A stretch of DNA of 64,000 nt, from the sequence record OM858838; one strand, 5' to 3'. Positions 2,206 through 63,891 of this stretch are shown one piece after another. A program made the translations under genes and the position numbers. Source of the DNA: Shigella phage B2. The notes below the pieces were generated by a model. That model was not told the origin of the DNA. It did not search any database and saw only the letters and a list, made by a program, of their open reading frames with translations. Position 1 is the first letter of the stretch. Each line of letters opens with the position of its first letter.

Positions 2206-2213
2206 GAGCTTAT

Positions 2214-2471
2214 ATGGGTTTATATCTGTATTGCCAAAATACCGAATGTGGTCAGTACGTTGATGGTATGGACTGTCAATGTTGTGGATGGACTCAACCA
2301 TTACCTGAGCCAGAATTCGAATTACCTGAAGACTTAAAACAAGCCTTACAGGATGCGTTAGATTTTGTAGGTCATGATTGTCGTTTTGACCATCATGGTT
2401 ATTGCCAAGAACATGGACTTCAAGAAGAAGACTCCTGCTTCGCAGGTGTATTCCGAAAATATTTGGAGTAA
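2214..2471 (+). CDS. small Cys-rich (zinc-ribbon-like) protein
   Basis: GGAG SD; CxxxxC...CxCC and C..H..H..C patterns in an 85-aa ORF. Confidence 0.5.
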   Translation: MGLYLYCQNTECGQYVDGMDCQCCGWTQPLPEPEFELPEDLKQALQDALDFVGHDCRFDHHGYCQEHGLQEEDSCFAGVFRKYLE

Positions 2472-2474
2472 ATC

Positions 2475-2879
2475 ATGTTCAAGATTCGGAAAGCTATACG
2501 TGATGTAGCGAACGCTAAGTACCCTAGAAAGCTCTCAATGAGTTTGGCTAGTAATATGCCCCTGTCTAATCATCGATGCCATTACAACGCTGTACAGGCT
2601 GTCAAAAATGATATGGCTGTAGGCGTGATAGAAGTAGTCATTATTTATGATGACACTTGTAGTGTTCACTTCGTGAATCTCATGGCTGATGGCTCAGTAG
2701 TTGATTACACATTGGGATTGATGTGCATTGACGATGATTATCGTTTTGTACGTCATGTATCTCCTAATGAGTATGACTCCATTAATCGTGCTCTGATGGA
2801 TGCTAAGCATAAGCTTCATGCTGAAACTCCTTGGCATATCAGAAAGTTAATTAAACTGTCCAAACAGGACTGGTGTTAA
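2475..2879 (+). CDS. hypothetical protein
   Basis: GGAG SD 6 nt upstream; tightly packed in operon. Confidence 0.5.
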   Translation: MFKIRKAIRDVANAKYPRKLSMSLASNMPLSNHRCHYNAVQAVKNDMAVGVIEVVIIYDDTCSVHFVNLMADGSVVDYTLGLMCIDDDYRFVRHVSPNEYDSINRALMDAKHKLHAETPWHIRKLIKLSKQDWC

Positions 2880-3694
2880 CCATGAAAGAGCAAGAACAAC
2901 TCAGGAAAGATATTTCCCGTATCTTTTCTATCTTTAAAGCCAGTGAATGTGAGTTACGTCCTCATTTTATTCTGACTGGCGAAAGTGGTACTGGAAAAAC
3001 CTTTTTAATTAAGTCTCTGGCTGACCAGCATAAGATGGATTACATCGAAATTAATGCTGCTCAGTTAACCAAAGAAGGCTTATCGGGTAATAGCTTAAGT
3101 AAGGCATTAGCTCCTCTTCGCCAAGCCAATGGTAATCCTGTCATCTGCTTTGTAGATGAATTCGATAAGTTATTTATCGCGGGTAACAACAATAGTGAAT
3201 TGGCTCATGAGTCTACTAATGGAGTTCAGAATGAATTCCTTAAGATTCTTGAATCTGATTGTACTTCGGTATTTGGCGACTATGGCAAGTATGTAGACGT
3301 TCCTGTTAGTAACGTTCTATTCGTATTTGCTGGAGCATTTAATGGAGAACCAGATATCACTCTGGATAAACTCCGTACCTTTGGTGTTAAGACTGAATTC
3401 TTAGGTCGTGTTGGTTTGGTATACAACACAGTGAAAGTCAGTCTGGAAACACTAATCAAAATCCTGAAAGACTCCAAAACTCTCGCTATGTATCTGGACT
3501 TGTTTCCAGAGGTTAAGCGCGAGAAAGCTGTTTCAGATATCTCTGCATTTATCAGAGATAACTATGAAATGAACACTCTGGGTATTCGTATGGTTAATAC
3601 GTTAATTACTCAGTACTTCATTCAAGATGGCAAACTTACCCGTGAAGAAGTTAAGTCTAGTACTTTCCAAAATAAACTTAAATTTGGTGAGTAG
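2873..3694 (+). CDS. ClpX/HslU-like AAA+ ATPase lacking the N-terminal zinc domain
   Basis: Walker A GESGTGKT, Walker B ICFVDEFDK; overall resemblance to the ClpX ATPase core (…AAQLTKEGLSGNSL…, …GVQNEFLKILES). Confidence 0.65.
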   Translation: MLTMKEQEQLRKDISRIFSIFKASECELRPHFILTGESGTGKTFLIKSLADQHKMDYIEINAAQLTKEGLSGNSLSKALAPLRQANGNPVICFVDEFDKLFIAGNNNSELAHESTNGVQNEFLKILESDCTSVFGDYGKYVDVPVSNVLFVFAGAFNGEPDITLDKLRTFGVKTEFLGRVGLVYNTVKVSLETLIKILKDSKTLAMYLDLFPEVKREKAVSDISAFIRDNYEMNTLGIRMVNTLITQYFIQDGKLTREEVKSSTFQNKLKFGE

Positions 3695-3695
3695 T

Positions 3696-3830
3696 ATGTC
3701 TAAACATCCTATCGCTTGGGATATCTTTCGTATCCCTGCAAAACTCGTCTGTCGAACCAAGAAGAACCATGTAGCCAATATTGCTCGTAGCAATGGCTTC
3801 AGAGTGATTCCTGTGTTCGGTAGAGGTTAA
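3696..3830 (+). CDS. small hypothetical protein (44 aa)
   Basis: short ORF with ATG 2 nt after upstream stop; weak. Confidence 0.3.
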   Translation: MSKHPIAWDIFRIPAKLVCRTKKNHVANIARSNGFRVIPVFGRG

Positions 3831-3853
3831 AGCCCCTTCGGGGCTTGCTTTGG
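3831..3853 (+). promoter_or_regulatory. TTC-triloop hairpin (agcccc-TTC-ggggct) followed by TGCTTTGG; candidate hairpin promoter or processing site
   Basis: 6-bp perfect stem, 3-nt loop, no T-run; same architecture recurs at 6112 and 52104. Confidence 0.4.
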
Positions 3854-3928
3854 AAAAAAGAAAGAGGAATTCATCCTCTTCAAATCAAACTGTAATTTTT
3901 AATCCCAATCTGAAAAGGTAAAAAAGAA

Positions 3929-5371
3929 ATGGCTAAGACTCTTGAGCAAGATGAAAAGAAAGTACACGTTGCTGAAATCGTTCGTCACGGCGAAAAACTG
4001 ATTGTGCCGGAAGGCATGTCTCTGAGCGATGTTATCGACCTCGCTAAACGTCGCATGAAGTTCGAAGAAGAAGAAGTTCTGGTACGTCGTACCTATAACG
4101 TATTCCCATGGGATGGTGCTCATGCTCTGATGCTGGCACTGACCGAACGTTATGGCTGGGCTGCTGCTGAAGCAACTCCTGGTTTCTTCGGCTCCAATCC
4201 TCCGCAAATGCTGGATGTGCAGGTCGGCTATGGCAAAACCAAAAAAGTTCCATGGGGACGTTTCTCTCTGCCACAGGTAGATGGTTTTGTTCAGTGTTCT
4301 GCACAGAAGAAAGATGGTCGTATCAGCTTCGAACTGGTCGGTAAAGTCCTGCGTAAAGACGAAAAGACTATCGAACTGCTGTTTGATACCGTTGAGCAAA
4401 CTCTGCGTACCAACTCCATTTACATGGGTCAGGCTATCAAAATCCGTTTCCGCGATAACGATGGCGACCTGCTGGAAATGCCGGAACCAGAATTCATGGA
4501 CCTGCGTGGTATCAGCCGTGATTCTCTGGTTTATTCTGACGATGTTCAGAACCTGATTGAAACCAACCTGTTTACGCCGATTGAGCGTGTTGCTGACTGT
4601 ATCGCTAACGATATGCCGGTTAAACGTGGCGTTCTGCTGGGTGGACCATACGGTACTGGTAAAACTATGGCTGCAACTGTTGCTGCTGCTCTGGCTACCA
4701 ACGTGGGTGTTACCTACGTATACGTACCGCGTTCTGATGAACTGTCTGATGCAATTCAGTTTGCTAAGCAGTACAGCGATAAAGCCTGCGTAATCTTCTG
4801 TGAAGATATCGACCGTGCCGTATCCGGTGAACGTAGCGTGAAGATGGACGATATCCTGAACATTCTGGATGGTATCGACACCAAAACTTCTCGCATCATC
4901 ACCGTTCTGACCACCAACCATCTGGAAAACATCAACCCAGCAATGCTGCGTCCGGGCCGTCTGGATGCAATCATCGATGTTACTGCGCCTGATGCGAAAG
5001 CTGTTGAAAAACTGGTTCGCCTGTATGGTCGTGACACCATCGCTGCTGATGCAGACCTGACTCTGGTCGGTGAAGCTCTGGCTGGTACTATTCCTGCGGT
5101 AATCGCGGAAGTTGTTAAGCGTGCGAAACTGCACCAGCTTCAGTATCAAGAAGCAGGTACTCTGATTGAAGAAATCAGCGGTCAAGCTCTGCTGGATTCC
5201 GCTCTGACTATTCAGGCACAGCGTAAGCTGCTGGAAGAACAGTCCAAGCCGAAAGTTAAAGAACCAACCTTCAACGAAACTATCGCTGCTGCTGTTGCTC
5301 CGGCAATTGCTGAAGCTGTAGGTAAAGTTGCTGGTCAGGTTTCTGAACTGCACGAACGTATCGTCGGCTAA
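3929..5371 (+). CDS. classic-clade AAA+ ATPase, codon-optimised (highly expressed)
   Basis: Walker A GGPYGTGKT, Walker B VIFCEDID, second region of homology with RPGRLD; strong host-like optimal codon usage (CTG, CGT, GGT, AAA) distinct from neighbours. Confidence 0.85.
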   Translation: MAKTLEQDEKKVHVAEIVRHGEKLIVPEGMSLSDVIDLAKRRMKFEEEEVLVRRTYNVFPWDGAHALMLALTERYGWAAAEATPGFFGSNPPQMLDVQVGYGKTKKVPWGRFSLPQVDGFVQCSAQKKDGRISFELVGKVLRKDEKTIELLFDTVEQTLRTNSIYMGQAIKIRFRDNDGDLLEMPEPEFMDLRGISRDSLVYSDDVQNLIETNLFTPIERVADCIANDMPVKRGVLLGGPYGTGKTMAATVAAALATNVGVTYVYVPRSDELSDAIQFAKQYSDKACVIFCEDIDRAVSGERSVKMDDILNILDGIDTKTSRIITVLTTNHLENINPAMLRPGRLDAIIDVTAPDAKAVEKLVRLYGRDTIAADADLTLVGEALAGTIPAVIAEVVKRAKLHQLQYQEAGTLIEEISGQALLDSALTIQAQRKLLEEQSKPKVKEPTFNETIAAAVAPAIAEAVGKVAGQVSELHERIVG

Positions 5372-5434
5372 CCGCCAGTAGTACTTGGATAGCCCTTCAA
5401 TGAGGGGCTATTCCAGTTATCACTGGAGGTAATC

Positions 5435-6112
5435 ATGAAGAATCTTTACCAGAAGATTGATGGAAGCCAATACAACCGAATCTTCGTTGTAGGAGATTTA
5501 CATGGTTGCTTTGATGAATTCCAAAAAGAGATGTGGGCTGTTCAGTTTAATGCTGAAACAGACTTAATCATCTCTGTAGGTGATTTAATTGACCGTGGTT
5601 CACAGAATGTGAATTGCTTACGTCTGTTAAATGAACCTTGGTTTAAAGCTGTTCTGGGTAATCATGAAGTAATGGCACTCAATGCCTTATCTTCTGAACC
5701 TTCTTCTGAAGAAGGGGATTTAGCATATTACAATTGGTTCCGTAATGGAGGCATTTGGATTATGGATATTCCTGAAGAACAGAAACCAGAAGTATTAGAA
5801 TTATTTACTCAGGTAGCAGAACTGCCTGGTATCATTGAAGTCTCAGTAGGTGACAAGACTATTGTTATCTGCCATGCAGACTACCCTTCAAATCAGTATC
5901 AATTCGATAAACCAGTTGATGAGGAAACTCTTATCTGGGGTAGAGAGCGTATAGCTCAAAACCAAAATGGAGAAGGTACTGTCATTCAAGGTGCTGACGA
6001 ATTCTACTTCGGTCACACACCTGCCAAAGACCCTATGCAATTTCATAACCAACATTACATTGATACCGGAGCAGTATTCGGTGGTCGATTAACATTGGTT
6101 CAAATCAAATAA
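5435..6112 (+). CDS. PPP-family Ser/Thr protein phosphatase (metallophosphoesterase)
   Basis: GDLHG, GDLIDRG and GNHE signature motifs in canonical order; GGAGG SD. Confidence 0.85.
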   Translation: MKNLYQKIDGSQYNRIFVVGDLHGCFDEFQKEMWAVQFNAETDLIISVGDLIDRGSQNVNCLRLLNEPWFKAVLGNHEVMALNALSSEPSSEEGDLAYYNWFRNGGIWIMDIPEEQKPEVLELFTQVAELPGIIEVSVGDKTIVICHADYPSNQYQFDKPVDEETLIWGRERIAQNQNGEGTVIQGADEFYFGHTPAKDPMQFHNQHYIDTGAVFGGRLTLVQIK

Positions 6113-6134
6113 CTGCCTTCGGCAGTTGCTTTGG
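6112..6134 (+). promoter_or_regulatory. TTC-triloop hairpin (actgcc-TTC-ggcagt) followed by TGCTTTGG
   Basis: 6-bp stem, 3-nt loop, overlaps stop codon of phosphatase gene; identical downstream octamer to hairpin at 3831. Confidence 0.4.
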
Positions 6135-6164
6135 TTACTCTTCACATCTGCATAGGTGCTCAAT

Positions 6165-6470
6165 ATGAAAATCCAAAAATTCGGTACTATCAATTTCACT
6201 GACTCCCTCAACTTGCCAATATTCTCGGGGTTCACTTTTAGTATTGAGAGTGAATCTGAACAGAGTATGACTCAAGATAAAAAGCTTAAAACTTTAATAA
6301 TGGTAACGGCTATCCGTGACCACTTAAGTAAAGTAGTTAAGTTTATTGAGGAAGATATCAGTAAAGCTTCTCTAAGAGATTCTGGGGACTTTTCTACTCC
6401 TGTAGGTAAAAGTACTAAGTCACCTGAAGAAATCGTCTCAGAGAGCCTCTCACGAATCATGGCTAAGTAG
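6165..6470 (+). CDS. hypothetical protein
   Basis: ORF with AGGTG SD; ATG at 6165 preferred over GTG at 6156. Confidence 0.5.
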   Translation: MKIQKFGTINFTDSLNLPIFSGFTFSIESESEQSMTQDKKLKTLIMVTAIRDHLSKVVKFIEEDISKASLRDSGDFSTPVGKSTKSPEEIVSESLSRIMAK

Positions 6471-6498
6471 TATTGAGCCTCTTTGGTTAAGGAGGCGT

Positions 6499-6759
6499 AT
6501 GTCTGAATCCCCAAATGCTACATATCGTGGAAACATGATGTGTATCAACTTTAGTTATGACTTTAAAATAGTCCTCCCTATTGAAGATGGTAAAGCCTTA
6601 CTTGAATTATTGAGTAAGGCTGAAATCTACAGGGAAGAATATAATAAAGACCCTTTCATTGAGCCAATGGATAAATCTTTAGATATCAAATTCATTGCTC
6701 GGAGTAAGTATGAGCTTCTTAAGCTCGCATTTTTAAGGACTGAGAATGAGTCTAACTAG
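6499..6759 (+). CDS. hypothetical protein
   Basis: AAGGAGG SD 4 nt upstream of ATG. Confidence 0.5.
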   Translation: MSESPNATYRGNMMCINFSYDFKIVLPIEDGKALLELLSKAEIYREEYNKDPFIEPMDKSLDIKFIARSKYELLKLAFLRTENESN

Positions 6760-7990
6760 TTGCCAAGAACAAGCAGCTAAGCAGTTCTTATCGTTTCTTT
6801 GTACTCCAATGAAACATATGGTTATTTCTGGTCCACCTGGAGTAGGCAAGACATTCATGCTTAATCACATGATTGATATGTTGCCTAGTACTAGACGTAT
6901 CACAAATATTATGGGTGTTGACCCAATTAATAATATTGCTGTTACTGCTACAACCAATAAGGCTGCTGAAGTATTACAGGAAAGGTTCTCTAATAGAACT
7001 GTATCCACAATCCATTCAACGTTAGGTCTAACAGTAAGGGATGATTACCGAACAGGTAAAACATTCACTGCTAAGGGCAAAAACTTTATACCTCTATCCG
7101 ACACTCTCATCCTTATGGATGAATCCTCAATGGCGGATACTCAACTACTGAAGTTAATCGATGAAGGTACTGCTAAAAACTGTAAGATAGTTTTTATTGG
7201 TGACCATTGTCAGTTGGCTCCAGTCTCAGAAACAATGAGTCCAGTTTTCAACTCGGGCTACATTACTTCATATCTAAATACCCAAATGCGAACTAACAAT
7301 AGTCCAGCATTAACTCTACTTAATGACCAGTTACGTCAGACAGTAGAAACGGGTGTCTTCAGACCAATCATTCCTGTTCCCGGTGTTATCGATTTCGTTA
7401 ATGACGATGAGATGCGCCGACTGATGAATGCAAATTTCATTTTGCAGGAAACTCCCGGTCATAAAATCCTAGCTTATACAAATAATGGGGTTCAAGAGTA
7501 CAACTCGTACATACGAACCAAGAAGCATTTACCTCCAACTTTGATGGTAGGTGATGCTGTCGTATCAAATAACAGCATTGAAACTGCTGGTTCTCGTACC
7601 ATTATCGAAAAGGTATACCGAGTACATTCAATATCTGGTGTACATCATAATGATGGTATTCCTTACTACATGGTAGATATTGGAGTAGGTGGTTTAGTTA
7701 AACAACCTGTTAACTATAGCCAGTTACAACAAGCAATCAGAGAAGCAGCCAATAATAAAGATTGGGTTGAGTACTTTCGTTTAAAGAATGAATTTGCTGA
7801 CTTACGGTTTGCATATGCATCTACTGTACATAAGTCTCAAGGCTCAACATTTGATACTGTCTATATCGATTTAGGTGACTTGTGCATCTGCAAGGATATG
7901 GAACAATTAGCTCGTATGCTTTATGTAGCTGCCAGTCGTGCTACTACTCGTGTTGTGTTCTATGGTAATCCTCCTCACTTCATGAGGTGA
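6746..7990 (+). CDS. Dda/RecD-like superfamily 1 DNA helicase
   Basis: Walker A GPPGVGKT, Walker B LILMDESSM, motif TVHKSQGSTFD and C-terminal AASRATTR typical of RecD/Dda helicases. Confidence 0.8.
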   Translation: MSLTSCQEQAAKQFLSFLCTPMKHMVISGPPGVGKTFMLNHMIDMLPSTRRITNIMGVDPINNIAVTATTNKAAEVLQERFSNRTVSTIHSTLGLTVRDDYRTGKTFTAKGKNFIPLSDTLILMDESSMADTQLLKLIDEGTAKNCKIVFIGDHCQLAPVSETMSPVFNSGYITSYLNTQMRTNNSPALTLLNDQLRQTVETGVFRPIIPVPGVIDFVNDDEMRRLMNANFILQETPGHKILAYTNNGVQEYNSYIRTKKHLPPTLMVGDAVVSNNSIETAGSRTIIEKVYRVHSISGVHHNDGIPYYMVDIGVGGLVKQPVNYSQLQQAIREAANNKDWVEYFRLKNEFADLRFAYASTVHKSQGSTFDTVYIDLGDLCICKDMEQLARMLYVAASRATTRVVFYGNPPHFMR

Positions 7991-7992
7991 TT

Positions 7993-8466
7993 ATGTCCAC
8001 ACTCACTACTCCAACAAGTAGGCATAAAGAAGATATTCTGGATTGGTTACTTAACTTAATTACAGATAACTTCTGTACTTTTGTACATAATAAAGAATTG
8101 CAATTATGCATTGATAACAATGCTCCTGATGGATTCATGTTTAATAATATGACATTCAGAGGAACTGACAGAATGGTTTTCACATGTAAACCAGAACTGG
8201 AAGAAACTGCAAAAGAAGTATGGGAATTGAAGCAAAAAGTTAAGAGAGACTGGATGTATCTCGAAAACTACTTCAAAAGAGTATTGGCTCGTATGACTAA
8301 CTATGGTCAGTTGTACTGCTATGTACCTCCCTTTATGCATAACAAGCTTAATGAAATCTTTGTTCATGCTTTCATAGGCGAGAAAGAACCAATCAGAGGT
8401 ATGCCTCCTGATGAGTCTATTCATAAACTTATCTCGTTCTATGTGATGACTAAATTGGTTATCTAA
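7993..8466 (+). CDS. hypothetical protein
   Basis: ORF; GAGG SD before ATG at 7993. Confidence 0.5.
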   Translation: MSTLTTPTSRHKEDILDWLLNLITDNFCTFVHNKELQLCIDNNAPDGFMFNNMTFRGTDRMVFTCKPELEETAKEVWELKQKVKRDWMYLENYFKRVLARMTNYGQLYCYVPPFMHNKLNEIFVHAFIGEKEPIRGMPPDESIHKLISFYVMTKLVI

Positions 8467-8711
8467 TGGATATCGCATTTGTAGTATCAAAAGTAATTGT
8501 TACAGAGTACACACTGCTTAGGCAGTGGTGGCCTGAACAGTTACGCGAGTCTAGATATGTCGATACAGATATGACTAGAACCTACTTCTTAGATAGACTT
8601 CCCTCTCCTGAATTGTATGAGCTTATGGATAGGCTTAATGCAGAAGGAAGAACCTATCGATTTATGGACTTAAGAGGAGTGGACTCAGAAGATGCGTCAC
8701 ATAATCTTTGA
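8466..8711 (+). CDS. hypothetical protein
   Basis: ORF with ATG overlapping upstream stop. Confidence 0.45.
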   Translation: MDIAFVVSKVIVTEYTLLRQWWPEQLRESRYVDTDMTRTYFLDRLPSPELYELMDRLNAEGRTYRFMDLRGVDSEDASHNL

Positions 8712-10347
8712 ACAGAACCAAAGATATCCAATAGCAATTCTCATCAAACCACAGCAACTAAAGAAGCGTGAGTTACAGGAAGCGTATATCGACCCTACTG
8801 GAATCAAGCCAAAGCAATTCATTGCATTTGACCTTGAGTACAATGGTAAGAAAGCTCCTGTATCTATGCAGAAAGACTATCTTAAAGACCTGTTACCAGA
8901 GCTATGCAACTTAAGAACAGAGTATGTTCTATGTTGCGATAGTGCTTACTTCAAGACTCTAACCAAGCAAACCAAAGCAGAACCTCATTATGGTTATGTA
9001 TTGCCTTGTGCTATTGCTGGTTTCGAGCACTTGAATATTATCTTTTGTCCTAACTATGCTCAGATTTTCTATGACCCATCAGTTCAGGATAAAGTCGATT
9101 TAGCACTTAAAGCATTGGTAGATAAAGTGAATGGGCAATACCAAGAGATTGGTAAGGATATTATTCATTCTGCTTATTACCCTTCAACAGTTGAAGACAT
9201 TGAAGCTTGGCTTGAATCTCTTCATCAATATCCAGTATTGGCGTCAGATATTGAGGCATTTAGCCTCAAATTCTATACAGCAGGTGTAGGTACTATTGGT
9301 TTTGCATGGGACCAACACAATGGAGGAGCATTCGCTGTTGATTACACGAATGAACCAGACAAGGCTAATAGGATAAGGCAGGCTCTTAAGAAGTTCTTTG
9401 AAACTTATAAAGGCAAACTGATTTGGCATAACGCTAGTTATGACTTAACAGTGCTTATCCATCAGCTTTGGATGAAAGGTCTAATAGACCAGAAAGGACT
9501 GCTTAAGGGGTTGCATATTATGTGTCGTGATTTTCACGATACTAAGATTGTAACTTATCTGGCTACAAACTCTTGTGCAGGTAATGAATTGGGACTGAAA
9601 GCTCAGGCTCATGAATTTGCTGGCAACTATGCACAAGAAGATATTAATGACATTACTAAGATTCCTCTTCCAGAGTTACTGGAATACAACTTAGTTGACT
9701 GTTTAAGCACTTGGTATGTTGCAGACAAACATGCAGATACTATGGTGCTGGATGAACAGTGGGAAATCTATAATGACCTAATGTTACCTTCGCTGAAGAA
9801 TATTATTCAGATGCAATTAACTGGTATGCCTATTGATATGGCAGAAGTTAAGAAGGTTAAAATAGAGATGACTAAAGAGCGTGATGGATATCTCAATGCT
9901 ATCCGTTCATTTGCTGTAGTAGATTTACTAGTTCATAACTTGCGTGAACAACATGTAGCTACTCGTAATGCTGCCCTTAAAACCAAGCAAATTACAATGT
10001 CTGATGATGAGACATTAAAAATAGAGTTTAATCCAAACTCTAACCCTCAGATGCAAGAACTCTTGTATGAGATTATGGGATTACCTGTAATCGATTATAC
10101 CGAATCTAAACAACCTGCTACTGGAGCAGATACTTTAGATAAGTTAATTAACCATACAACAGATGACCGTCAGAAAAAGATACTCGAATGCCTTATTAAG
10201 TATTCTAAGGTAGAGAAGATTTTATCTGCATTCATCCCTGCATTTGAAGAAGCACCTTTAGCCGAAGATGGTAACTACTATCTGTTCGGTAGCTATAACT
10301 TAGGTGGTACTGTATCCGGTCGTTTGAGTTCATCAAAGCCTAAATAA
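8692..10347 (+). CDS. DNA polymerase I family, N-terminal part (3'-5' exonuclease and palm start), ends inside the conserved GRLSS..PN.QNIP motif
   Basis: exonuclease-like DIEAFSLKFY region; C-terminus …TVSGRLSSSKPK matches the first half of the Pol I motif …TGRLSS.DPNLQNIP. Confidence 0.85.
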   Translation: MRHIIFEQNQRYPIAILIKPQQLKKRELQEAYIDPTGIKPKQFIAFDLEYNGKKAPVSMQKDYLKDLLPELCNLRTEYVLCCDSAYFKTLTKQTKAEPHYGYVLPCAIAGFEHLNIIFCPNYAQIFYDPSVQDKVDLALKALVDKVNGQYQEIGKDIIHSAYYPSTVEDIEAWLESLHQYPVLASDIEAFSLKFYTAGVGTIGFAWDQHNGGAFAVDYTNEPDKANRIRQALKKFFETYKGKLIWHNASYDLTVLIHQLWMKGLIDQKGLLKGLHIMCRDFHDTKIVTYLATNSCAGNELGLKAQAHEFAGNYAQEDINDITKIPLPELLEYNLVDCLSTWYVADKHADTMVLDEQWEIYNDLMLPSLKNIIQMQLTGMPIDMAEVKKVKIEMTKERDGYLNAIRSFAVVDLLVHNLREQHVATRNAALKTKQITMSDDETLKIEFNPNSNPQMQELLYEIMGLPVIDYTESKQPATGADTLDKLINHTTDDRQKKILECLIKYSKVEKILSAFIPAFEEAPLAEDGNYYLFGSYNLGGTVSGRLSSSKPK

Positions 10348-11053
10348 ATTGGGCTGTTTAAACTTCGTGAATTCGGGGAAAATCCAGAACGGACAATCCC
10401 GAGCCAAGTCAACCAATCATGTCTTAAGAGGCAGAATGGACACTAAAAAATTAGAATATTTATATGAAAACACTTCTTTATCTCAGAAAGAGATTGCTAA
10501 GTGTTTAGGATTAAAATCTGCTAGGGCTGTTCAAAAATATTGTTACAGACACTATACAAGTGCCTATCGTAAAGAAAGGCATTCCAAGCTATTAGCTAAA
10601 GCTAAACTAGGAAGTTTAAACCCTATGTTTGGTAAATCTGGTTTATACCACCCCAGATATCTAGGAGTTGTCTCTGACAACAAAGGGTATTGGATGGTAT
10701 TAAAACCAGAGTGGTATACAGGGCGTAAAAGCAGTAAGCATGTATTTTTACATTCTGTAGTTGTATGTGAACATCTAGGATGGACAGAAATACCGAAAGG
10801 GTATGTAGTTCATCATTGTGATTTTGACCCATCAAATAATGATTTTGATAATTTAGTGGTGCTTACTGTAGCAGAACATATGAGCTTACATGCAGCATTG
10901 AAAGGTGTAACGACTATCTCGAAAGAGAGTACACTCAAGTGGGTGGAAGCGCGAAGGGCTGGTAACAGCCATGATATAGTCTGACCTGTATAGGAATATA
11001 CAGCAGCACTGAATAGTGCGAGTACAGCTTAACGAACTGTACTGAACGTAGTG
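10342..11053 (+). mobile_element. candidate group I intron carrying an HNH homing endonuclease ORF, inserted in the DNA polymerase gene
   Basis: insertion splits a single ultra-conserved motif; proposed 5' exon ends in T (10341), insertion ends in G (11053); joining 10341 to 11054 is in frame and restores SKPNMQQIP. Confidence 0.5.
10436..10984 (+). CDS. HNH homing endonuclease
   Basis: VVHHCDFDPSNNDFDNLVVLTVAEHMSLH HNH motif; GAGG SD before ATG 10436 (track ORF starts further upstream at non-ATG 10349). Confidence 0.8.
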   Translation: MDTKKLEYLYENTSLSQKEIAKCLGLKSARAVQKYCYRHYTSAYRKERHSKLLAKAKLGSLNPMFGKSGLYHPRYLGVVSDNKGYWMVLKPEWYTGRKSSKHVFLHSVVVCEHLGWTEIPKGYVVHHCDFDPSNNDFDNLVVLTVAEHMSLHAALKGVTTISKESTLKWVEARRAGNSHDIV

Positions 11054-11995
11054 AATATGCAACAAATCCCATCCTCTAAGAGTCCTTATGCCAAGCCTAT
11101 TAAGCGATGCTTTAAAGCTGGTAAAGGTTGGCTTCTTATTGGGTTAGACTTTGCATCTCTAGAGGACCGTATTTCAGCTCTGACAACCAAAGACCCCAAT
11201 AAACTTAAAGTTTATACTGATGGGTATGATGGTCATTCTCTCAGAGCATTCGCTTACTTTGGCGACCAAATGCCTGATATTCAGAATACAGTGGATAGTA
11301 TTAATAGTATTCAGGACTTATATAAGGACTTTAGACAAGAATCTAAAGCTCCTACTTTTGCACTTACCTATCAAGGTACTTATCACACATTGATGGCTAA
11401 CTGTGGCTTCCCAGAAGACAAAGCGAAAATGGTTGAAAAGAGGTATCACGAACTCTATTTCGTCTCTGACCAATGGGTAGACGCCAAGTTAGCACAAGCC
11501 AGCAAAGATGGTTATATCACTGCTGCATTCGGATTAAGAATCCGTACTCCATTACTCAAAAATGTTGTCTGGGGAATTAAACAAACACCATATGAAGCCA
11601 AAGCAGAAGGCAGAACTGCTGGTAATGCTTTAGGTCAGTCTTGGTGCTTGTTAAATAACCGAGCAGCAAATGAGTTTATGGAACGTGTATGGAATTCTCC
11701 TTATGCAGATGTAATCAAACCATGCGCTCAAATTCATGATGCTCAGTATTATCTGGTTCCAGATGATATTGATATTGTTCATTGGGTTAATGAGAACTTA
11801 GTTGAGTGTGTTCAATGGCAAGACCATCCCGATATCTATCACGAGGAAGTGAAGTTAGGAGGAGATTTAAGTGTCTTTTACCCATCATGGGCTAATGATA
11901 TCTCCTTAAAGAATGGAGCTTCTAGAGAAGAAATCTTAGATACATGTGAAGTTGGATTGGATAAGTATCTTCACCCGGAGAAATATAAAAAATGA
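11051..11995 (+). CDS. DNA polymerase I family, C-terminal part (fingers/palm with motifs A and C)
   Basis: begins NMQQIP (second half of the split motif), DFASLEDR motif-A-like, QIHDAQYY motif-C-like. Confidence 0.85.
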   Translation: MNMQQIPSSKSPYAKPIKRCFKAGKGWLLIGLDFASLEDRISALTTKDPNKLKVYTDGYDGHSLRAFAYFGDQMPDIQNTVDSINSIQDLYKDFRQESKAPTFALTYQGTYHTLMANCGFPEDKAKMVEKRYHELYFVSDQWVDAKLAQASKDGYITAAFGLRIRTPLLKNVVWGIKQTPYEAKAEGRTAGNALGQSWCLLNNRAANEFMERVWNSPYADVIKPCAQIHDAQYYLVPDDIDIVHWVNENLVECVQWQDHPDIYHEEVKLGGDLSVFYPSWANDISLKNGASREEILDTCEVGLDKYLHPEKYKK

Positions 11996-12369
11996 GTATC
12001 TTACAGTCCCCTATTGATAATGCTCCTGCAATCTTACAGGAAGCACATCGTTGTATTGCTGACAGAGCACATGAACGTGACCAAGAATCTGAACGTTCAA
12101 TGGAACGCACTGTAGCAGCCTTCAATGCAATGTATAAGCTCAACCTGACAGAAGAACAGGGTTGGATGTTTATGGTCTTCCTGAAAGCTGCAAGAGCTTC
12201 AGGAGGCTCATTCAAGCTTGATGACTATGTTGATGGCTCTGCTTACTTTGCGTTAGCTGGTGAAGCTGCTATGCCACATCCTCAATTAGAACTGTCACTT
12301 TCTGAACCAGAAATGACTAGAAAACATGCAGAACATTTCGGAATTCCATTAGGAAAGGAACAAATCTAA
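11992..12369 (+). CDS. hypothetical protein
   Basis: ORF with ATGA overlap to polymerase stop. Confidence 0.5.
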   Translation: MSILQSPIDNAPAILQEAHRCIADRAHERDQESERSMERTVAAFNAMYKLNLTEEQGWMFMVFLKAARASGGSFKLDDYVDGSAYFALAGEAAMPHPQLELSLSEPEMTRKHAEHFGIPLGKEQI

Positions 12370-58233: not shown

Positions 58234-58572
58234 ATGGGTAGAGCAAAAGAGAGAATTCACATGGCTATCATCCATTCAATCATTGGTTCTAATTCAGAAC
58301 CATCAACAGTAGTAGTCAACAAGTATAAGGAACCATACGATGTATATATCGGTAGAGGTAGTCTATGGGGAAATCCTTATACAGTTCAAGAACATGGCAG
58401 AGAACTATGCATTGCAATGTATGAGCAATACATACGTGCAAGACTACATCAAGAACCTGATTTATATCTTCAATTACTTGAGCTTAAAGGTAAGAAGCTA
58501 GGCTGCTTCTGTAAACCTAAACCATGTCATGGTGATGTATTAGTTAGACTCATCCAAGAGTACTCAAACTAA
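58234..58572 (+). CDS. hypothetical early protein (start may be ATG 58261)
   Basis: 112-aa ORF; Cys/His-containing C-terminal half. Confidence 0.5.
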   Translation: MGRAKERIHMAIIHSIIGSNSEPSTVVVNKYKEPYDVYIGRGSLWGNPYTVQEHGRELCIAMYEQYIRARLHQEPDLYLQLLELKGKKLGCFCKPKPCHGDVLVRLIQEYSN

Positions 58573-58648
58573 TAATCTAATACCCTTCAATTCCAATAAA
58601 CATACTATAGAGCACTTAGTTACTATCTAGGTGTTCAGGAGTGTATTT

Positions 58649-58855
58649 ATGTCTATTAAATTAACTGTTGTTGCTAAACGTTATAACTCAGAGAAACTCA
58701 TCAGAATACTTATGCCATGGGGTTCTAACATCTCATATGGTAGACGTTGGCAAGTGTCATTTAGGGATGGTAGAGGTAGACACTATGACCATTCATTCGT
58801 AGCTAAACCAACTCGTAAACAGATTCGTAAACTCATCAAGGATATCAACAAATGA
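58649..58855 (+). CDS. small basic early protein
   Basis: AGGAG SD before ATG 58649. Confidence 0.45.
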   Translation: MSIKLTVVAKRYNSEKLIRILMPWGSNISYGRRWQVSFRDGRGRHYDHSFVAKPTRKQIRKLIKDINK

Positions 58856-59592: not shown

Positions 59593-60009
59593 ATGGCAGT
59601 ATTAAACGGTTCTAACAACGCTTCTTCTATCATCGGTGCTGCTCTGGGTGGTAAACCTGCTGCTGGTGCACAGCGTCCACAAGCTGAAGTATTTATCAAC
59701 GTTGGTATCAACGTACAGATGCCTAACGAAGAAGGTGAGATGGTTGATACCTTCCTGTCTCTGCCTTTCGGCCTGCCGTTGGATACCATGAATGAACTGG
59801 TGATTCGTGGTAATAACCAGCAGTGGAATGAGCAGGCTGCTGCTCGTAATGAGCTTCTGAAAGCTCTGGTCAAAATGGGTGAAGCTCTGGATGCTGGTAC
59901 TGGTACAGAGATGCCTAAGCTCAGTGTTCAACTGTATCGCCGTAAGGCTCAGGAAGAACATCAGGCCAGCAACAACGCAATGGCTCAGATTCTGGCTGCA
60001 TTGAGCTAA
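59593..60009 (+). CDS. abundant early protein (codon-optimised), function unknown
   Basis: host-optimal codons; flanked by tandem hairpins upstream and tetraloop terminator downstream. Confidence 0.75.
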   Translation: MAVLNGSNNASSIIGAALGGKPAAGAQRPQAEVFINVGINVQMPNEEGEMVDTFLSLPFGLPLDTMNELVIRGNNQQWNEQAAARNELLKALVKMGEALDAGTGTEMPKLSVQLYRRKAQEEHQASNNAMAQILAALS

Positions 60010-60018
60010 TCGAATAAT

Positions 60019-60047
60019 GGGATACCTTCGGGTATCCCTTATTTTTT
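60019..60047 (+). terminator. intrinsic terminator with cTTCGg tetraloop
   Basis: 8-bp stem gggatacc/ggtatccc, TTCG loop, T-run. Confidence 0.55.
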
Positions 60048-60056
60048 GGAGGGGAC

Positions 60057-60239
60057 ATGCGTGTATTAGCAGTGTTAATTCTGTTTCTAGTTATCTTCGG
60101 GAAACTAGTACTCAATGTTATCGAAGAAGATACAGTGCAATACCAGCATCAAATGAAATGCGTCAAAGAGAAGATTGCCAACGGGATTCCTCGTAGTGCA
60201 ATCAAGTTAACTACTGATTCATGTGAGGTTATCAAATGA
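60057..60239 (+). CDS. small membrane protein
   Basis: 60-aa ORF with N-terminal hydrophobic helix. Confidence 0.4.
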   Translation: MRVLAVLILFLVIFGKLVLNVIEEDTVQYQHQMKCVKEKIANGIPRSAIKLTTDSCEVIK

Positions 60240-60403
60240 ATTTATTCTTGTTGTTAGTGTTCATCGTGCTGCGCACGCTCATTGGGTTGTTCTGGTTTGT
60301 AGTGGAAATGGTATGGTTCCTGTTCTGCGTAATGATTGGAATCCTATCTTTACCCTATTACTTAGGTGTCATCATCAGAGCAGTAGCTAAGCCCTCGAAA
60401 TGA
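60236..60403 (+). CDS. small membrane protein (55 aa, not in ORF track)
   Basis: ATGA coupling; two hydrophobic helices; followed by hairpin agccctc/gagggct. Confidence 0.4.
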   Translation: MNLFLLLVFIVLRTLIGLFWFVVEMVWFLFCVMIGILSLPYYLGVIIRAVAKPSK

Positions 60404-60433
60404 GGGCTATATTACGCTTAAGGTAGATAGTCA

Positions 60434-60637
60434 ATGAATGGAGATTTGATAGATATATTAGAACTAATAGTTGTTCTCAAATTAGGTAATAGAAATAAAG
60501 TATGTAACCACATAATGATACATAGAATGTGTAATGATATTCCATGTAGTGAATGCCTACTTAATACAAGTAAAGTATATATTTCTGACTATCCAATTCA
60601 AATCATTGAAATGAAAGGTAAGCTAAATGAACAATGA
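60434..60637 (+). CDS. Cys-motif mini-protein family member 1
   Basis: N-terminal MNGDLIDILELI, C-terminal C…C…C..C cluster. Confidence 0.5.
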   Translation: MNGDLIDILELIVVLKLGNRNKVCNHIMIHRMCNDIPCSECLLNTSKVYISDYPIQIIEMKGKLNEQ

Positions 60638-60839
60638 TTTATTCTTAATTCTTAGTTCTATTAAAGCTGCATTAGGTGAAGGTAGAGGTAAAAATACTTC
60701 TGCTGATTTTCTATGTAATGGTATTCATGATACTGACCCTGAACAATGTCATTATGTTAATTGTATTGATTGTATAGTTGGATATAAAGATTCAACTAAA
60801 TATGCACATCAGATAATCCAGACATGGAAAATATTATGA
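60627..60839 (+). CDS. Cys-motif mini-protein family member 2
   Basis: MNNDLFLILSSIK…C…C..C.DC; overlaps neighbours. Confidence 0.5.
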   Translation: MNNDLFLILSSIKAALGEGRGKNTSADFLCNGIHDTDPEQCHYVNCIDCIVGYKDSTKYAHQIIQTWKIL

Positions 60840-61045
60840 ATAAAGAACTTAAGTTAATTTTATTTACTTTAAAAATGAAAATTAAATTTGGTAATGGAAC
60901 TGCCGAAAACTTATGTAGAAGTATGGTAATAGATATTGATGGAGAATTAATTCCTCAATGTACTCAAATTTCTTGTTTTAATTGTCTATTTTATCAAGAT
61001 TCTACTTATGCAGAAAAGGTAATACATGTCTGGCATCAACTCTGA
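60836..61045 (+). CDS. Cys-motif mini-protein family member 3
   Basis: MNKELKLILFTLK…C…C..C.NC; ATGA coupling at 60836. Confidence 0.5.
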   Translation: MNKELKLILFTLKMKIKFGNGTAENLCRSMVIDIDGELIPQCTQISCFNCLFYQDSTYAEKVIHVWHQL

Positions 61046-61271
61046 ATTATTATTCATACTTCAAAGTATTAAAAACTCTATGGCAAAAGAAGAAGTACAA
61101 AATAAGAGAGGTATTCAATGGGGAGAATCAGATAAATTGTGTACAGAACATTTATATAATGTATGTGGGGATAAAACATCTAAAAATATATGTGATGATT
61201 GCTTAATTGGATACAAAGATAATGTTGGATATGCATCCAATATGATTATTGTAATTCAAAAGTTAATCTAA
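61026..61271 (+). CDS. Cys-motif mini-protein family member 4
   Basis: …SELLFILQSIK…C…C.DC. Confidence 0.5.
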   Translation: MSGINSELLFILQSIKNSMAKEEVQNKRGIQWGESDKLCTEHLYNVCGDKTSKNICDDCLIGYKDNVGYASNMIIVIQKLI

Positions 61272-61344
61272 GGGCTATCAATATTGGTAGTCCAATATTA
61301 ATGTCTCGTTAGATAGTTGTACTTCAATCCAAGAGGATATCAAT

Positions 61345-61584
61345 ATGTCAAAGAAAACTAAGTCAGCTAAACCAGTAGAAGTTAAGTTAGGTAATGTTCC
61401 TGATTATACAGTGACTTATAGTCGTCAAGAACAGTTATGGGGAGTCCATATTAATGGTATCTCTGCATACATTCTCAAACGACCTATTGGTAAAAAGAAT
61501 ATGTATTACGTAGGTACTCGTTATTTCAAAACACTACGTGATGCAATCTTCAGTGTTGTATTGGGGAATTCACTTCCCTTCTAG
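61345..61584 (+). CDS. small basic hypothetical protein (not of the Cys family)
   Basis: 79-aa ORF with own SD. Confidence 0.45.
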   Translation: MSKKTKSAKPVEVKLGNVPDYTVTYSRQEQLWGVHINGISAYILKRPIGKKNMYYVGTRYFKTLRDAIFSVVLGNSLPF

Positions 61585-61592
61585 GAGAAGTA

Positions 61593-61766
61593 ATGAACCA
61601 AGAGTTAATACTTATTCTCTCAGCCATTAGAGAAAATAAAGGAATATGTACTAAATATTCTGTTAAATGTCATGGAATAGATTGTGGAAACTGTATTCTA
61701 GCAGAAGTATATATACAAAACTTCTACAAAGATTATATAGTTAAAATGGGTGAGAGAATATTATGA
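61593..61766 (+). CDS. Cys-motif mini-protein family member 5 (57 aa, not in ORF track)
   Basis: AGGAG SD; MNQELILILSAIR…C…C..C.NC. Confidence 0.45.
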   Translation: MNQELILILSAIRENKGICTKYSVKCHGIDCGNCILAEVYIQNFYKDYIVKMGERIL

Positions 61767-61993
61767 ATAGAGAATTACTAACAATAATAGAATCTCTATG
61801 TAAAAAGGTAGTATTTAAAAGCCATTCAGGGCTAGAGTTCATAGAAACTAAGCCTGAAATGTGTCGTATTATTTCATTAAGAGTTCCTCGTAGATGCGAA
61901 GGAACTAGTTGCTGTAATTGTTATTTCTCAAGGAGTAAACAATTACATGAAGTTTATACTTTATATTTAAAAAGACTTATTCAACGTATTTAG
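61763..61993 (+). CDS. Cys-motif mini-protein family member 6
   Basis: MNRELLTIIESLC…C..CCNC. Confidence 0.5.
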   Translation: MNRELLTIIESLCKKVVFKSHSGLEFIETKPEMCRIISLRVPRRCEGTSCCNCYFSRSKQLHEVYTLYLKRLIQRI

Positions 61994-62015
61994 TTTTCCT
62001 TGTCGCTTCGCTCCT

Positions 62016-62028
62016 CAGCCTTCGGCTG
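62016..62028 (+). promoter_or_regulatory. TTC-triloop hairpin (cagcc-TTC-ggctg), candidate hairpin promoter
   Basis: 5-bp stem, 3-nt loop, followed by TTCTGGTGAA; upstream of macro-like gene. Confidence 0.4.
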
Positions 62029-62058
62029 TTCTGGTGAATTATAAACTTAGAGGTAAAT

Positions 62059-62562
62059 ATGTTAGAAGCTCGCGGTAATATGCTTGAAATGGAATGTGAT
62101 GCGTTGTGCATTACTACCAATGGATTTGTTAAAAGCAATGGTGCATCAGTTATGGGTGCTGGTATTGCAAAGCAGATGCGAGTAACTATTCCTGGACTGG
62201 ATAAAATTCTAGGTCAGAAGATTGCTCGTGAAGGTAACAATGTTCATTTCTTATTAAATTATAACAATATTGGAATTGTATCCTTCCCTGTTAAACCAAT
62301 AACAGAAATTAGTAATGGTGAGAACTTTGTTAAACATAAGTTCTTCCCTGTAGGTACAACAGTTCCGGGATGGGCATGTAAAGCAAACATCGATTTGATT
62401 GTACGTTCATGCCAGCAACTGGTAGCACTGGCTGACCAATATGGTTGGCAGAAAGTCTTATTACCAAGACCGGGATGTGGTGCTGGTGAGCTTAACTGGA
62501 GCCATGTGAAGAAGGTTATTGAACCTTTGTTAGATGACAGGTTTATCGTCTGCACCTATTGA
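62059..62562 (+). CDS. macro-domain-like protein (possible ADP-ribose binding/hydrolase)
   Basis: N-terminal …DALCITTNGFVKSNGASVMGAGIA… resembles macro-domain Gly-rich ADP-ribose pocket; GAGG SD. Confidence 0.5.
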   Translation: MLEARGNMLEMECDALCITTNGFVKSNGASVMGAGIAKQMRVTIPGLDKILGQKIAREGNNVHFLLNYNNIGIVSFPVKPITEISNGENFVKHKFFPVGTTVPGWACKANIDLIVRSCQQLVALADQYGWQKVLLPRPGCGAGELNWSHVKKVIEPLLDDRFIVCTY

Positions 62563-62569
62563 GGTGAGT

Positions 62570-62773
62570 ATGGGTAACCAATTAATAGTAATATTTAAAG
62601 AATTACTTCACTCAGGAGTGAATCCTACTTTATGTCATAACTATATTGGCACTGAATGTGTAGACATACCATCATGCGCAAATTGCCCTTTATCTAGTAC
62701 TTCATTCGCAAAACATCCTGAAAGAAATTTCCCTAATCAGTTATTTACTGTATTGGAGAAGTTGAATGGATAA
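62570..62773 (+). CDS. Cys-motif mini-protein family member 7
   Basis: GAGGTGAG SD; MGNQLIVIFKELL…C…C…C.NC. Confidence 0.5.
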   Translation: MGNQLIVIFKELLHSGVNPTLCHNYIGTECVDIPSCANCPLSSTSFAKHPERNFPNQLFTVLEKLNG

Positions 62774-62996
62774 ATTAATTACCATTTTAAATGGAATATA
62801 TAATTTACCTGAACGCAAAGACTACGCTCCAAAAGAGTACATATGTGATTTAATCATATGTCCTGATGTACTTTGCAGTAATTGTCCAATGGGCAACCCA
62901 CATTATTTAAATCCTGACAAAGAATTATTTGTCACTCAAATCCATAAAACATTGGAAGTCATGAACCATGAAACAAGAAACTCAACTCCTGATTGA
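62766..62996 (+). CDS. Cys-motif mini-protein family member 8
   Basis: MDKLITILNGIY…C…C.NC. Confidence 0.5.
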   Translation: MDKLITILNGIYNLPERKDYAPKEYICDLIICPDVLCSNCPMGNPHYLNPDKELFVTQIHKTLEVMNHETRNSTPD

Positions 62997-63891
62997 ATCT
63001 ATGTTCAACCGTCACCAATCTCGTGACCTAATTAGAAATGAAATTAGAACTTCACCTGAAGTTATGGAGTTAGTTAGTGCTGCTGTAGATAAAGCACTGG
63101 AATGGGTAGAAGGTGATTACTTTGAAAGTAAGAACAAACGTCTGGCATTATTGGATACCAATATCCTAGAAGACTTCTACATTGATGTTGCTGGTTCATT
63201 GGCTCAATTTGGTAAGGCTAAGTATACCCAGATAGTAGGTATGGTATCTGGAATGATTTCTACTATGCCTCAGAAAGAGGCTATAAGGACTGCTGGAGAG
63301 CTTATCTCATTAGCAGCTATGGTAGACCTCATTGACCTGATTCCAGCCTCTATGAGCGTTACAGGCTCTATGGAACTGGTATCCCGTATACAGCTTGAAC
63401 CAAAGACATTGGAACTGATTAACCAGTATCAATATCTGCCTCCTATGCTTGTTCCCCCTGAACCAGTTAAATCAAATACTGGTAGTGGGTATCTGTCCAT
63501 CAAATGGGATTCCCTGATTCTGAAGAAGAATCATCATGAGTTTGATATCTGTTTGGATAATATCAACAGATTTAACTCAGTAGCTTTCTCTCTGGATGAC
63601 CGTGTAATCCGTAATATTAGGGATAACCGTAAACATCTGGATAGTGCTAAAGCTGATGAATCTGCTGATGAGTACAAAGCACGAGTTGATTCATTTCTGA
63701 AAATGGAAAAGGAATCTATGCGTGTATTTGCAATGCTCATCAATGAAGGGAACAGATTCTATCTGACTCACAAGTATGACAAACGAGGTCGTACTTACTG
63801 TCAGGGCTATCATGTCTCCTACCAAGGGAATACCTATCGTAAAGCTATTCTTGAATTAGCTGATAAAGAAATCGTACCCATTGAGGAATAA
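62968..63891 (+). CDS. T7-like RNA polymerase, N-terminal subunit of a split (two-gene) phage RNAP (N4 RNAP II-like)
   Basis: C-terminal YDKRGRTYCQGYHVSYQGN matches the T7 RNAP D.RGR.Y…QGND region; gene continues as a separate ORF. Confidence 0.65.
   Translation: MKQETQLLIESMFNRHQSRDLIRNEIRTSPEVMELVSAAVDKALEWVEGDYFESKNKRLALLDTNILEDFYIDVAGSLAQFGKAKYTQIVGMVSGMISTMPQKEAIRTAGELISLAAMVDLIDLIPASMSVTGSMELVSRIQLEPKTLELINQYQYLPPMLVPPEPVKSNTGSGYLSIKWDSLILKKNHHEFDICLDNINRFNSVAFSLDDRVIRNIRDNRKHLDSAKADESADEYKARVDSFLKMEKESMRVFAMLINEGNRFYLTHKYDKRGRTYCQGYHVSYQGNTYRKAILELADKEIVPIEE

Follow-up and report, generated by a model that had tools for sequence, protein, structure and literature searches.

A family of small four-cysteine proteins forms a multi-copy early array in Shigella phage B2 and related N4-like phages

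Shigella phage B2 carries a series of very small genes with similar products in its early region, and this locus raises the question of whether the genes form a true family and, if so, what such a family would do for the phage. We addressed this question in a stretch of 64,000 nucleotides (nt) from this phage (record OM858838), hereafter termed the window. A first-pass annotation, made from the letters and their translations alone, had picked out eight open reading frames (ORFs) between positions 60434 and 62996 and described them as a tandem array of paralogous cysteine-motif mini-proteins; all eight were found at those positions on the + strand (Table 1). The window phage is an Ithacavirus-like N4-type phage (Schitoviridae; Humphriesvirinae; Ithacavirus relatives). 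The array lies in the early region, where that annotation had also placed it, at the left end and beside host-takeover genes; every gene there is on the + strand, with a homologue of N4 gp2 on one side of the array and the gene for RNAPII subunit 1 (RNAP1) on the other. The sequences are best explained if all eight ORFs encode expressed proteins that belong to a single family restricted to a clade of N4-like phages. This family is real and uncharacterised, and its organisation is unusual, with up to 13 copies of one scaffold in a recombining early array.

Multiple sequence alignment of the eight predicted proteins with MAFFT showed that M1, L5, I8 and four cysteine columns are invariant. In a wider alignment of 88 family sequences that included distant relatives, the four cysteines were still invariant and M1, N2, L5 and I8 were at least 90% conserved. 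The motif in the window members is C1-x(4-14)-C2-x(4-8)-C3-x-[DNE]-C4, the residue preceding the last cysteine being D, N or E in all eight, and the spacing C2-x4-C3-x2-C4 is found in six of them (members 4 and 7 have x8 and x5, respectively, between C2 and C3). Among relatives, the C1-C2 spacer extends up to 19 residues. A hidden Markov model (HMM) built from the eight proteins was searched against the 654 six-frame ORFs of the window and recovered exactly these eight, with expect values (E) of 7e-25 to 7.5e-17; the next-best ORF scored E 0.31. Likewise, when each member was left out in turn, a profile of the other seven recovered it at E 1.1e-5 to 8.3e-12, and the best non-member scored E 0.039 or higher. 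The results of both tests indicate that the similarity reflects homology rather than AT-rich composition. Chance or compositional bias, which the first-pass annotation had named as the finding that would undo its proposal, is ruled out as the source of the shared motifs, and the alignment and leave-one-out results bear out its description of a paralogous family with conserved cysteines.

The reading frames are tightly packed. As the first-pass annotation had noted, members overlap their neighbours by a few nucleotides: 11 nt between members 1 and 2, 4 nt between 2 and 3, 20 nt between 3 and 4, 4 nt between 5 and 6, and 8 nt between 7 and 8, with ATGA start/stop overlaps at 2/3 and 5/6. Member 8 further overlaps the RNAP1 gene by 29 nt. 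This pattern is typical of translationally coupled phage operons. A purine-rich Shine-Dalgarno-like stretch (AGGAG, GAGGTG, GGAG, AAAGG or similar) lies 5-13 nt 5' of seven of the eight starts; the start of member 3 at 60836, for which the ORF list begins at an upstream ATG (60824), is preceded merely by a weak GGA. Member 7 has an alternative in-frame ATG at 62534 that would give a protein of 79 aa, and the start at 62570 is favoured because GAGGTG lies just before it, 4 nt upstream. The products vary on a common plan. Member 1, a 100% match to Shigella phage B2 gp69, consists of an MNGDLIDIL helix, the cysteines C24-x8-C33-x4-C38-x2-C41 and a C-terminal YPIQIIE helix; member 4 begins with MSGINSEL and has the longest linker of the eight, and member 5 is the minimal version of the domain. 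The array is the most AT-rich part of the window, with a guanine-plus-cytosine (GC) content of 31.5% over 60001-62000 compared to 37-47% elsewhere in the window (about 38-40% for the rest of the genome) and a GC skew of up to +0.175 over the same interval. Positions 62968-62996 encode both the end of member 8 and the start of the RNAP1 gene, in different frames; the member 8 tail in this segment, NHETRNSTPD, is kept as far as phage TR2 and the metagenomic relatives, which indicates that the segment is constrained in two frames.

We surveyed the distribution of the family among phages and other sequences. A megablast search with 60200-63200 matched 18 phage records. All are N4-like podophages, with Salmonella, Klebsiella or E. 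coli as hosts, and the nearest (88-91% identity) were the Salmonella phages As2, UTK0001, SP154, UTK0002 and FSL SP-058. A tblastn search of 50,697 phage records with member 8 returned the same 18 records, representing 12 named phages of the Humphriesvirinae plus Triduovirus. With the family HMM, the early regions of individual phages contained 12 (As2), 11 (UTK0001), 13 (SP154), 12 (UTK0002), 12 (SP-058), 11 (TR2), 8 (Pollock) and 7 (Pylas) copies. N4 itself had none: positions 1-12000 of its genome gave no family HMM match at E ≤ 0.01, and none at E ≤ 0.1 with an earlier family profile, and N4 gp13, which is cysteine-rich, has a different cysteine layout. The family is thus confined to one N4-like clade, where it has 7-13 copies per genome and invariably occupies this early region. 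In relatives, one to three more members lie between the RNAP1 and RNAP2 genes; since the window ends about 100 nt past the RNAP1 gene, before this gap, the window phage probably carries more than eight copies. Among four divergent metagenomic contigs, two carry at least 10 copies each, one carries at least 9 and one at least 6; three of the four have the layout gp2 - gp8 - macro - RNAPII, the fourth (1.8 kb) being too short to include the flanks.

A profile search of 1.84 billion representative proteins gave 80 clusters at E ≤ 1e-3, nearly all of them stand-alone proteins of 57-90 residues. Homologues found in this search and in word-index searches were named only 'hypothetical protein', and the literature searched, including the papers on SP-058 and B2, contains no mention of the family or of its organisation as a multi-copy array. 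The same proteins are represented in PHROGs 16571, 32354, 14146 and 28062, where, unlike in the single family defined here, they are divided among several clusters of unknown function: seven of the eight members match phrog_16571 (best E 5.1e-16) and three match phrog_32354 (best E 1.9e-51); with member 1, phrog_28062 aligns over residues 1-66 of its 66-position profile (E 9.6e-35). Several members in published relatives are unannotated in GenBank, i.e., at 5028-5213 of record L001, 5727-5954 of record L002, and 3904-4170, 4365-4571, 4857-5484 and 7906-8133 of record L005 (FSL SP-058), and annotation-based copy numbers are therefore too low.

Two or three copies of the cysteine module, with the pattern LC...C-x-G-[VI]-x-C-x-x-C-[IL]L...NR..F, were also present in each of five long proteins of unrelated phages (P0070, at 8001-8876 of contig L007; P0106, at 7542-7973 of contig L009; P0118; P0128; and P0130), from which it follows that the module is distributed more widely than the N4-like clade. 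In P0106 the module comes after DnaJ-like CxxCxGxG motifs, and in P0128 and P0130 it stands alongside repeated KFKVGD-type small domains. These fusions were considered as a clue to function and set aside, as the other parts of the long proteins have no confident Pfam domain and the contexts are unrelated phages.

The first-pass annotation had suggested rapid duplication, and on this point our results disagree. Protein identity between paralogues is only 27-38%, BLASTP hardly detects some of the pairs, and the DNA repeats between copies are at most about 21 nt long, which rules out recent tandem duplication. Slots 3 and 7 have no reciprocal-best orthologue in Pollock, Pylas or TR2; each of the other six has one in at least two of these phages, and for member 8 there are syntenic ones in all three. 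The low identity, the lack of long repeats and the orthologues shared across genera together show that the array is old. Judging from these comparisons, it predates the Pollock, Pylas and TR2 genera and has since undergone gain, loss and allele exchange.

Exchange of alleles is apparent from comparison with the five nearest relatives. The genes for gp2, gp8, the macro-like protein and RNAP1 are 95-99% identical to those of the relatives at the nucleotide level. For each mini-gene, by contrast, identity is high (about 94-100%) with some relatives and much lower (about 70-82%) with others, and the patterns are incongruent between genes: member 2 is 98% identical to As2 and 74% to UTK0001; member 5 is 95% identical to UTK0001 and 70% to As2; and member 8 is 100% identical to UTK0001, 75% to UTK0002, and 76-77% to SP154 and SP-058. 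In four of the five relatives, only about 14% of the length of the member 4 slot was matched, so these phages have a different allele or member there. Such mosaic identity, as read from the sequences, is the signature of alleles swapped by recombination within a conserved backbone.

The variation is concentrated in the middle of each gene. We profiled variability for each orthologous slot using 7-20 distinct alleles, metagenomic ones included. Per-slot entropy was low at both ends, with 0.14-0.69 bits for residues 1-12 and 0.07-0.76 bits for the C-terminal helix, and rose to as much as 1.9 bits in the linker, the cysteine loop and the next ten or so residues. Only two of the 32 motif cysteine columns vary (in slots 2 and 4); the remainder are invariant. 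A conserved N-terminus followed by a hypervariable, cysteine-containing middle recalls the leader and core of ribosomally synthesised and post-translationally modified peptide (RiPP) precursors, and the products might thus be RiPP-like precursors or secreted, disulfide-bonded peptides. We regard this as extremely improbable, given that conservation is as strong in the C-terminal helix as at the N-terminus, that no signal peptide was seen in the member sequences, and that the domain is predicted to be a folded helical unit. Furthermore, the early region contains no gene for a modifying enzyme, protease or transporter; the neighbours are only the DUF4326 and DUF7279 genes, the gp2 and gp8 homologues, the macro-like gene and the RNAPII genes.

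We then compared rates of nonsynonymous (dN) and synonymous (dS) substitution by the Nei-Gojobori method, pooled over six Ithacavirus-like genomes. The dN/dS ratio across related phages, which the first-pass annotation had put forward as a check on its proposal, was 0.32 in the N-terminal part of the family, 0.38 between C1 and C4, and 0.38 in the C-terminal part; the neighbours gave 0.16 (gp2 homologue), 0.18 (gp8 homologue), 0.07 (macro-like gene), 0.02 (RNAP1) and 0.14 (ORF 60057, just upstream of the array). Family dN was 0.11-0.23 and dS 0.29-0.61, compared to a dN of 0.002-0.05 for these five control neighbours, i.e., a 2- to 100-fold higher dN for the mini-genes, whose ORFs are intact in all relatives. 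These values indicate that the mini-genes are under purifying but relaxed selection. Positive selection was not detected in any of the three parts of the gene, the cysteine loop included; slot 5 was the sole slot with a loop ratio above 1 (1.17), over few sites. The first-pass annotation had likened the array to host-interaction genes, and this part of its proposal agrees with the accessory-like evolution seen here, namely the raised dN, the mosaic exchange of central segments and the high and variable copy number.

Relaxed constraint also prompts the suggestion that the array is largely neutral, 'selfish' material, in which conserved ends promote recombination, loss is not selected against and no copy has a specific function. 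Such an origin would fit the differing copy numbers among close relatives, the AT-rich region and the frequent lack of annotation of these genes in GenBank as well as the ratios themselves. It is nevertheless very unlikely: dN/dS is clearly below 1, every copy has kept an intact frame and tight translational-coupling overlaps, syntenic orthologues persist between genera, and every copy retains the four cysteines and both helices, over four or more genera as well as the divergent metagenomic relatives.

Structure prediction with AlphaFold2 gave similar layouts for the two members modelled. For member 2 (51-sequence alignment), the model has a mean predicted local distance difference test score (pLDDT) of 68.3 and shows three helices, with a short helical turn where C3-x2-C4 lies; for member 5 (88-sequence alignment), the mean pLDDT is 67.6, with helices at residues 3-14, 18-25 and 43-56 and a turn at C31-x2-C34. 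Common to both models are an N-terminal helix, a helix bearing C1, a loop bearing C2, the C3-x2-C4 turn and a C-terminal helix. On these predictions, each member is best explained as a small helical domain. Being invariant in a small protein expected to be cytoplasmic, the four cysteines are most probably ligands of a structural metal, for which Zn(II) is the favoured candidate. The small zinc-binding modules suggested by the first-pass annotation are plausible. The modelled layout would place the ligands at the end of a helix, in a loop and at the start of the next turn, similar to retroviral integrase HHCC N-terminal domains and TAZ-type zinc sites, which are small all-helical bundles clamped by four ligands.

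The C-x4-C-x2-C spacing is also compatible with an iron-sulfur cluster. In this alternative the four cysteines would bind 2Fe-2S or 4Fe-4S rather than zinc, and the proteins would be small redox or cluster-dependent sensors, analogous to WhiB. The cluster-binding loop of plant-type ferredoxins has the spacing C-x4-C-x2-C (CRAGSCSSC), the spacing of the six members noted above, and the family consensus C-x-G-[VI]-x-C-x-x-C, with its loop glycine, resembles it; in addition, the ferredoxin family Fer2 was the sole Pfam match of any window member (member 5, E 0.025). However, this match reached 14.9 bits against a gathering score of 21 and was obtained for one of 88 members, the fourth cysteine precedes the other three, where the ferredoxin motif has it about 29 residues after them, helices are predicted in place of a beta-grasp fold, and members 4 and 7 depart from the x4 spacing. 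The small WhiB-like proteins of actinophages also have four cysteines, in the order C-x(14-22)-C-x2-C-x5-C for WhiB; the order here, C-x(4-14)-C-x(4-8)-C-x2-C, differs, and there was no Pfam Whib match. Cluster binding is thus quite unlikely, and the choice between iron-sulfur and zinc is orthogonal to the functional readings discussed below.

Database comparisons did not connect the family to proteins of known function. Apart from the sub-threshold Fer2 match, the eight members matched no Pfam family, and the 88 members gave only scattered single Pfam matches (E 0.005-0.15). Known zinc-finger families in Pfam (zf-*, zinc ribbon, B-box, RING and treble clef) gave nothing above gathering score, NCBIfam gave nothing usable for the family, and the PADLOC anti-phage defence profiles gave 0 families at E ≤ 1. 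The best match in a profile search of the PDB was the TIF1-beta B-box (E 0.18). Foldseek searches of the PDB returned nothing at E ≤ 0.001 and matched no solved zinc-binding domain fold, and Foldseek searches of BFVD returned the TR2 homologue alone (E 0.029). No relation to Ocr, Acr, Tad, Gad and similar proteins was found in the PDB, BFVD and Pfam searches, which are general libraries that include many such proteins.

What, then, might the array do? With about even confidence, we favour the reading that its products form a panel of small binders, clamped by metal and directed at host or defence proteins. In this model, the conserved hydrophobic N-terminal helix (MNxELxxIL) and the C-terminal helix (YxxQII...) would form a scaffold, and the four cysteines (C1 ... 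C2-x4-8-C3-x2-C4) would hold one metal ion and so tie down the central loop, which together with its flanks is hypervariable and would carry specificity. The mini-proteins would be made immediately after infection and would bind host proteins, either takeover targets or components of anti-phage defence. Each paralogue or allele would have a different specificity, and homologous recombination at the conserved ends of the genes would swap specificities among co-circulating phages. A more specific version, that a metal-clamped helical fold not described before serves as a modular, recombination-shuffled library of 7-13 early inhibitors, each cysteine loop tuned to its own takeover target or defence protein in a combinatorial counter-defence locus based on one scaffold, is a tentative proposal and clearly the less probable of the two. 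The host-directed reading draws on the position in the early operon, the restriction to one clade, the variable copy number, the shuffled alleles, the variable loop and the mostly non-basic isoelectric points (pI) of the members: seven of the eight are neutral or mildly acidic (pI 5.2-7.6), which suggests that they are not DNA-binding proteins, and member 6 is the sole basic one (pI 9.4). The presence of a gp8 homologue and a macro-like gene inside the array indicates that it is embedded among host-directed early functions, and the DUF4326 gene and the gp2 homologue before it belong to the same takeover context.

This panel of binders has partial parallels among known systems. N4 gp8 and other small early takeover proteins have the operon, size class and expected timing in common with the cysteine family; gp8, however, is unrelated in sequence, single-copy and 96-97% conserved, whereas the family is multi-copy and hypervariable. 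The hypervariable accessory and anti-defence islands of lytic phages likewise comprise small early genes of low GC content, with presence/absence variation and mosaic alleles among near-identical genomes. The array differs from them in consisting of paralogues of one fold instead of unrelated genes and in having no match to a characterised anti-defence protein.

The mini-proteins could instead assist or regulate transcription or replication of the phage itself, for example as factors that confer specificity on the heterodimeric RNAPII or help to assemble it, or as small metal-finger proteins that bind DNA or RNA at phage promoters. The genomic setting is in line with this: the array adjoins the RNAPII genes, member 8 overlaps the start of RNAP1, relatives have additional members between RNAP1 and RNAP2, and the array comes after the homologue of gp2, which in N4 is an RNAPII cofactor. 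The strongly basic member 6 is a further point in its favour. A role of this kind is nonetheless unlikely. N4 has the same gp2/RNAPII scheme and no member of the family, and the family occurs in just 18 of the 50,697 phage records, so it lies outside the core N4 transcription machinery. Nor would 7-13 divergent, individually dispensable and allele-swapped copies be expected for a cofactor of a conserved enzyme, the RNAPII genes being 97-99% identical among the same phages, and most members are neutral or acidic.

Several points weigh against the host-directed reading itself. The dN/dS ratio is below 1 even in the cysteine loop, where dS is also raised (0.61), and the diversity of the loop can therefore be explained by old alleles and recombination with no arms race. 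The structural models are of moderate confidence (mean pLDDT about 68; predicted template modelling score about 0.4), and no relation in sequence or fold to a known zinc finger, anti-defence or host-takeover protein was found. The early timing is deduced from genome position and from knowledge of N4 alone. Finally, the placement of up to three copies between the RNAPII subunit genes of relatives may just as well indicate a function in phage transcription. On balance, we rank a panel of host or defence binders first, followed by a role in phage transcription, near-neutral cargo and, last, RiPP-like peptides.

Two genes interrupt the array, as the first-pass annotation had noted (Table 1). It had labelled the first of these an unrelated ORF, which we correct: the product matches the Pfam family N4_GP8 ('Bacteriophage N4 DNA replication inhibitor') with a score of 93.4 bits, where the cut-off is 25. 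This gp8 homologue is 96-97% identical to relatives at the nucleotide level and is labelled just hypothetical in most GenBank relatives. The second is the macro-like gene, whose orthologues in Pylas and others are annotated as ADP-ribose binding protein or phosphatase. The gp2-like gene is 97-99% identical to relatives (nt), and metagenomic relatives have a match to Pfam Phage_N4_Gp2 at the equivalent position. The early region opens with the DUF4326 and DUF7279 genes, both uncharacterised and conserved across the clade; the DUF4326 protein is the counterpart of N4 gp12.

Table 1. Members of the four-cysteine family and neighbouring genes in the early region of the window.
Feature	Coordinates	Strand	Product (aa)	HMM E	Leave-one-out E	Pfam match or annotation of orthologues
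Member 1	60434-60637	+	67	1.4e-20	6.9e-10	
Member 2	60627-60839	+	70	7.1e-25	8.3e-12	
Member 3	60836-61045	+	69	6.4e-23	4.6e-9	
Member 4	61026-61271	+	81	6e-22	9.8e-7	
Member 5	61593-61766	+	57	7.5e-17	4.3e-8	
Member 6	61763-61993	+	76	4.2e-23	9.5e-9	
Member 7	62570-62773	+	67	2.8e-20	1.3e-7	
Member 8	62766-62996	+	76	5.7e-21	1.1e-5	
N4 gp8 homologue (non-member, within array)	61345-61584	+				Pfam N4_GP8, E 1.2e-26
Macro-like gene (non-member, within array)	62059-62562	+				Pfam Macro, E 0.0019, below gathering score
gp2-like ORF	59593-60009	+	138			SP-058 and Pollock orthologues annotated N4 gp2-like
RNAP1 ORF	62968-63891	+	307			Orthologues annotated RNAP1, N4 gp15-like
DUF4326 protein	58234-58572	+				DUF4326, E 4.3e-26; annotated T4 NrdA.1-like in relatives
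DUF7279 protein	58631-58855	+				DUF7279, E 6.6e-9

Hypervariability extends to two further small ORFs on the + strand just upstream of the array, at 60057-60239 and 60236-60403. Identity of ORF 60057 to each of the five relatives is only about 74%, within a flanking backbone of 95-99%, and ORF 60236 encodes a very hydrophobic, probably membrane-spanning product of 55 aa with no DNA match in the five relatives.

The region also contains several potential hairpins. A strong terminator-like hairpin at 60019-60038, GGGATACCTTCGGGTATCCC followed by a T-run, lies directly 3' of the gp2-like gene, and the cysteine array would therefore need read-through or a promoter of its own. A 7-bp hairpin (AGCCCTC-GAAAT-GAGGGCT) lies at 60390-60408, just 5' of member 1, with a folding z-score of -2.1 to -2.4. 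A second, with an 8-bp stem, belongs to the near-palindrome CAATATTGG-TAGT-CCAATATTA at 61272-61299, in the gap between member 4 and the gp8 homologue (z-score -4.1). These two could be operon punctuation, i.e., terminators, processing sites or promoters. On the template (-) strand at 62004-62028, 5' of the macro-like gene, the mini-hairpins CAGCC-GAA-GGCTG and GC-GAA-GC stand next to each other; with their small stems and 3-nt purine loops they resemble the hairpin promoters of N4 virion RNA polymerase, and their folding z-score is not significant. Hairpins are present around the array, and a simple, loose motif scan for N4-type hairpin promoters or terminators was not specific.

The significance of the family depends on which of these readings is correct. 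If the members prove inert, or act in phage transcription only, the array would be of local interest for N4 biology. If they are host-directed binders, one phage would provide about ten natural variants of a 60-residue scaffold, and dozens more alleles, swapped in nature, would come from relatives and metagenomes. Such a series could be used to map the host and defence proteins that N4-like phages of Salmonella, Shigella, E. coli and Klebsiella must neutralise, and could help account for differences in host range among near-identical therapeutic candidates. It would also add a new small metal-binding fold and would show that a gene design with conserved ends and a variable centre lets recombination swap specificities.

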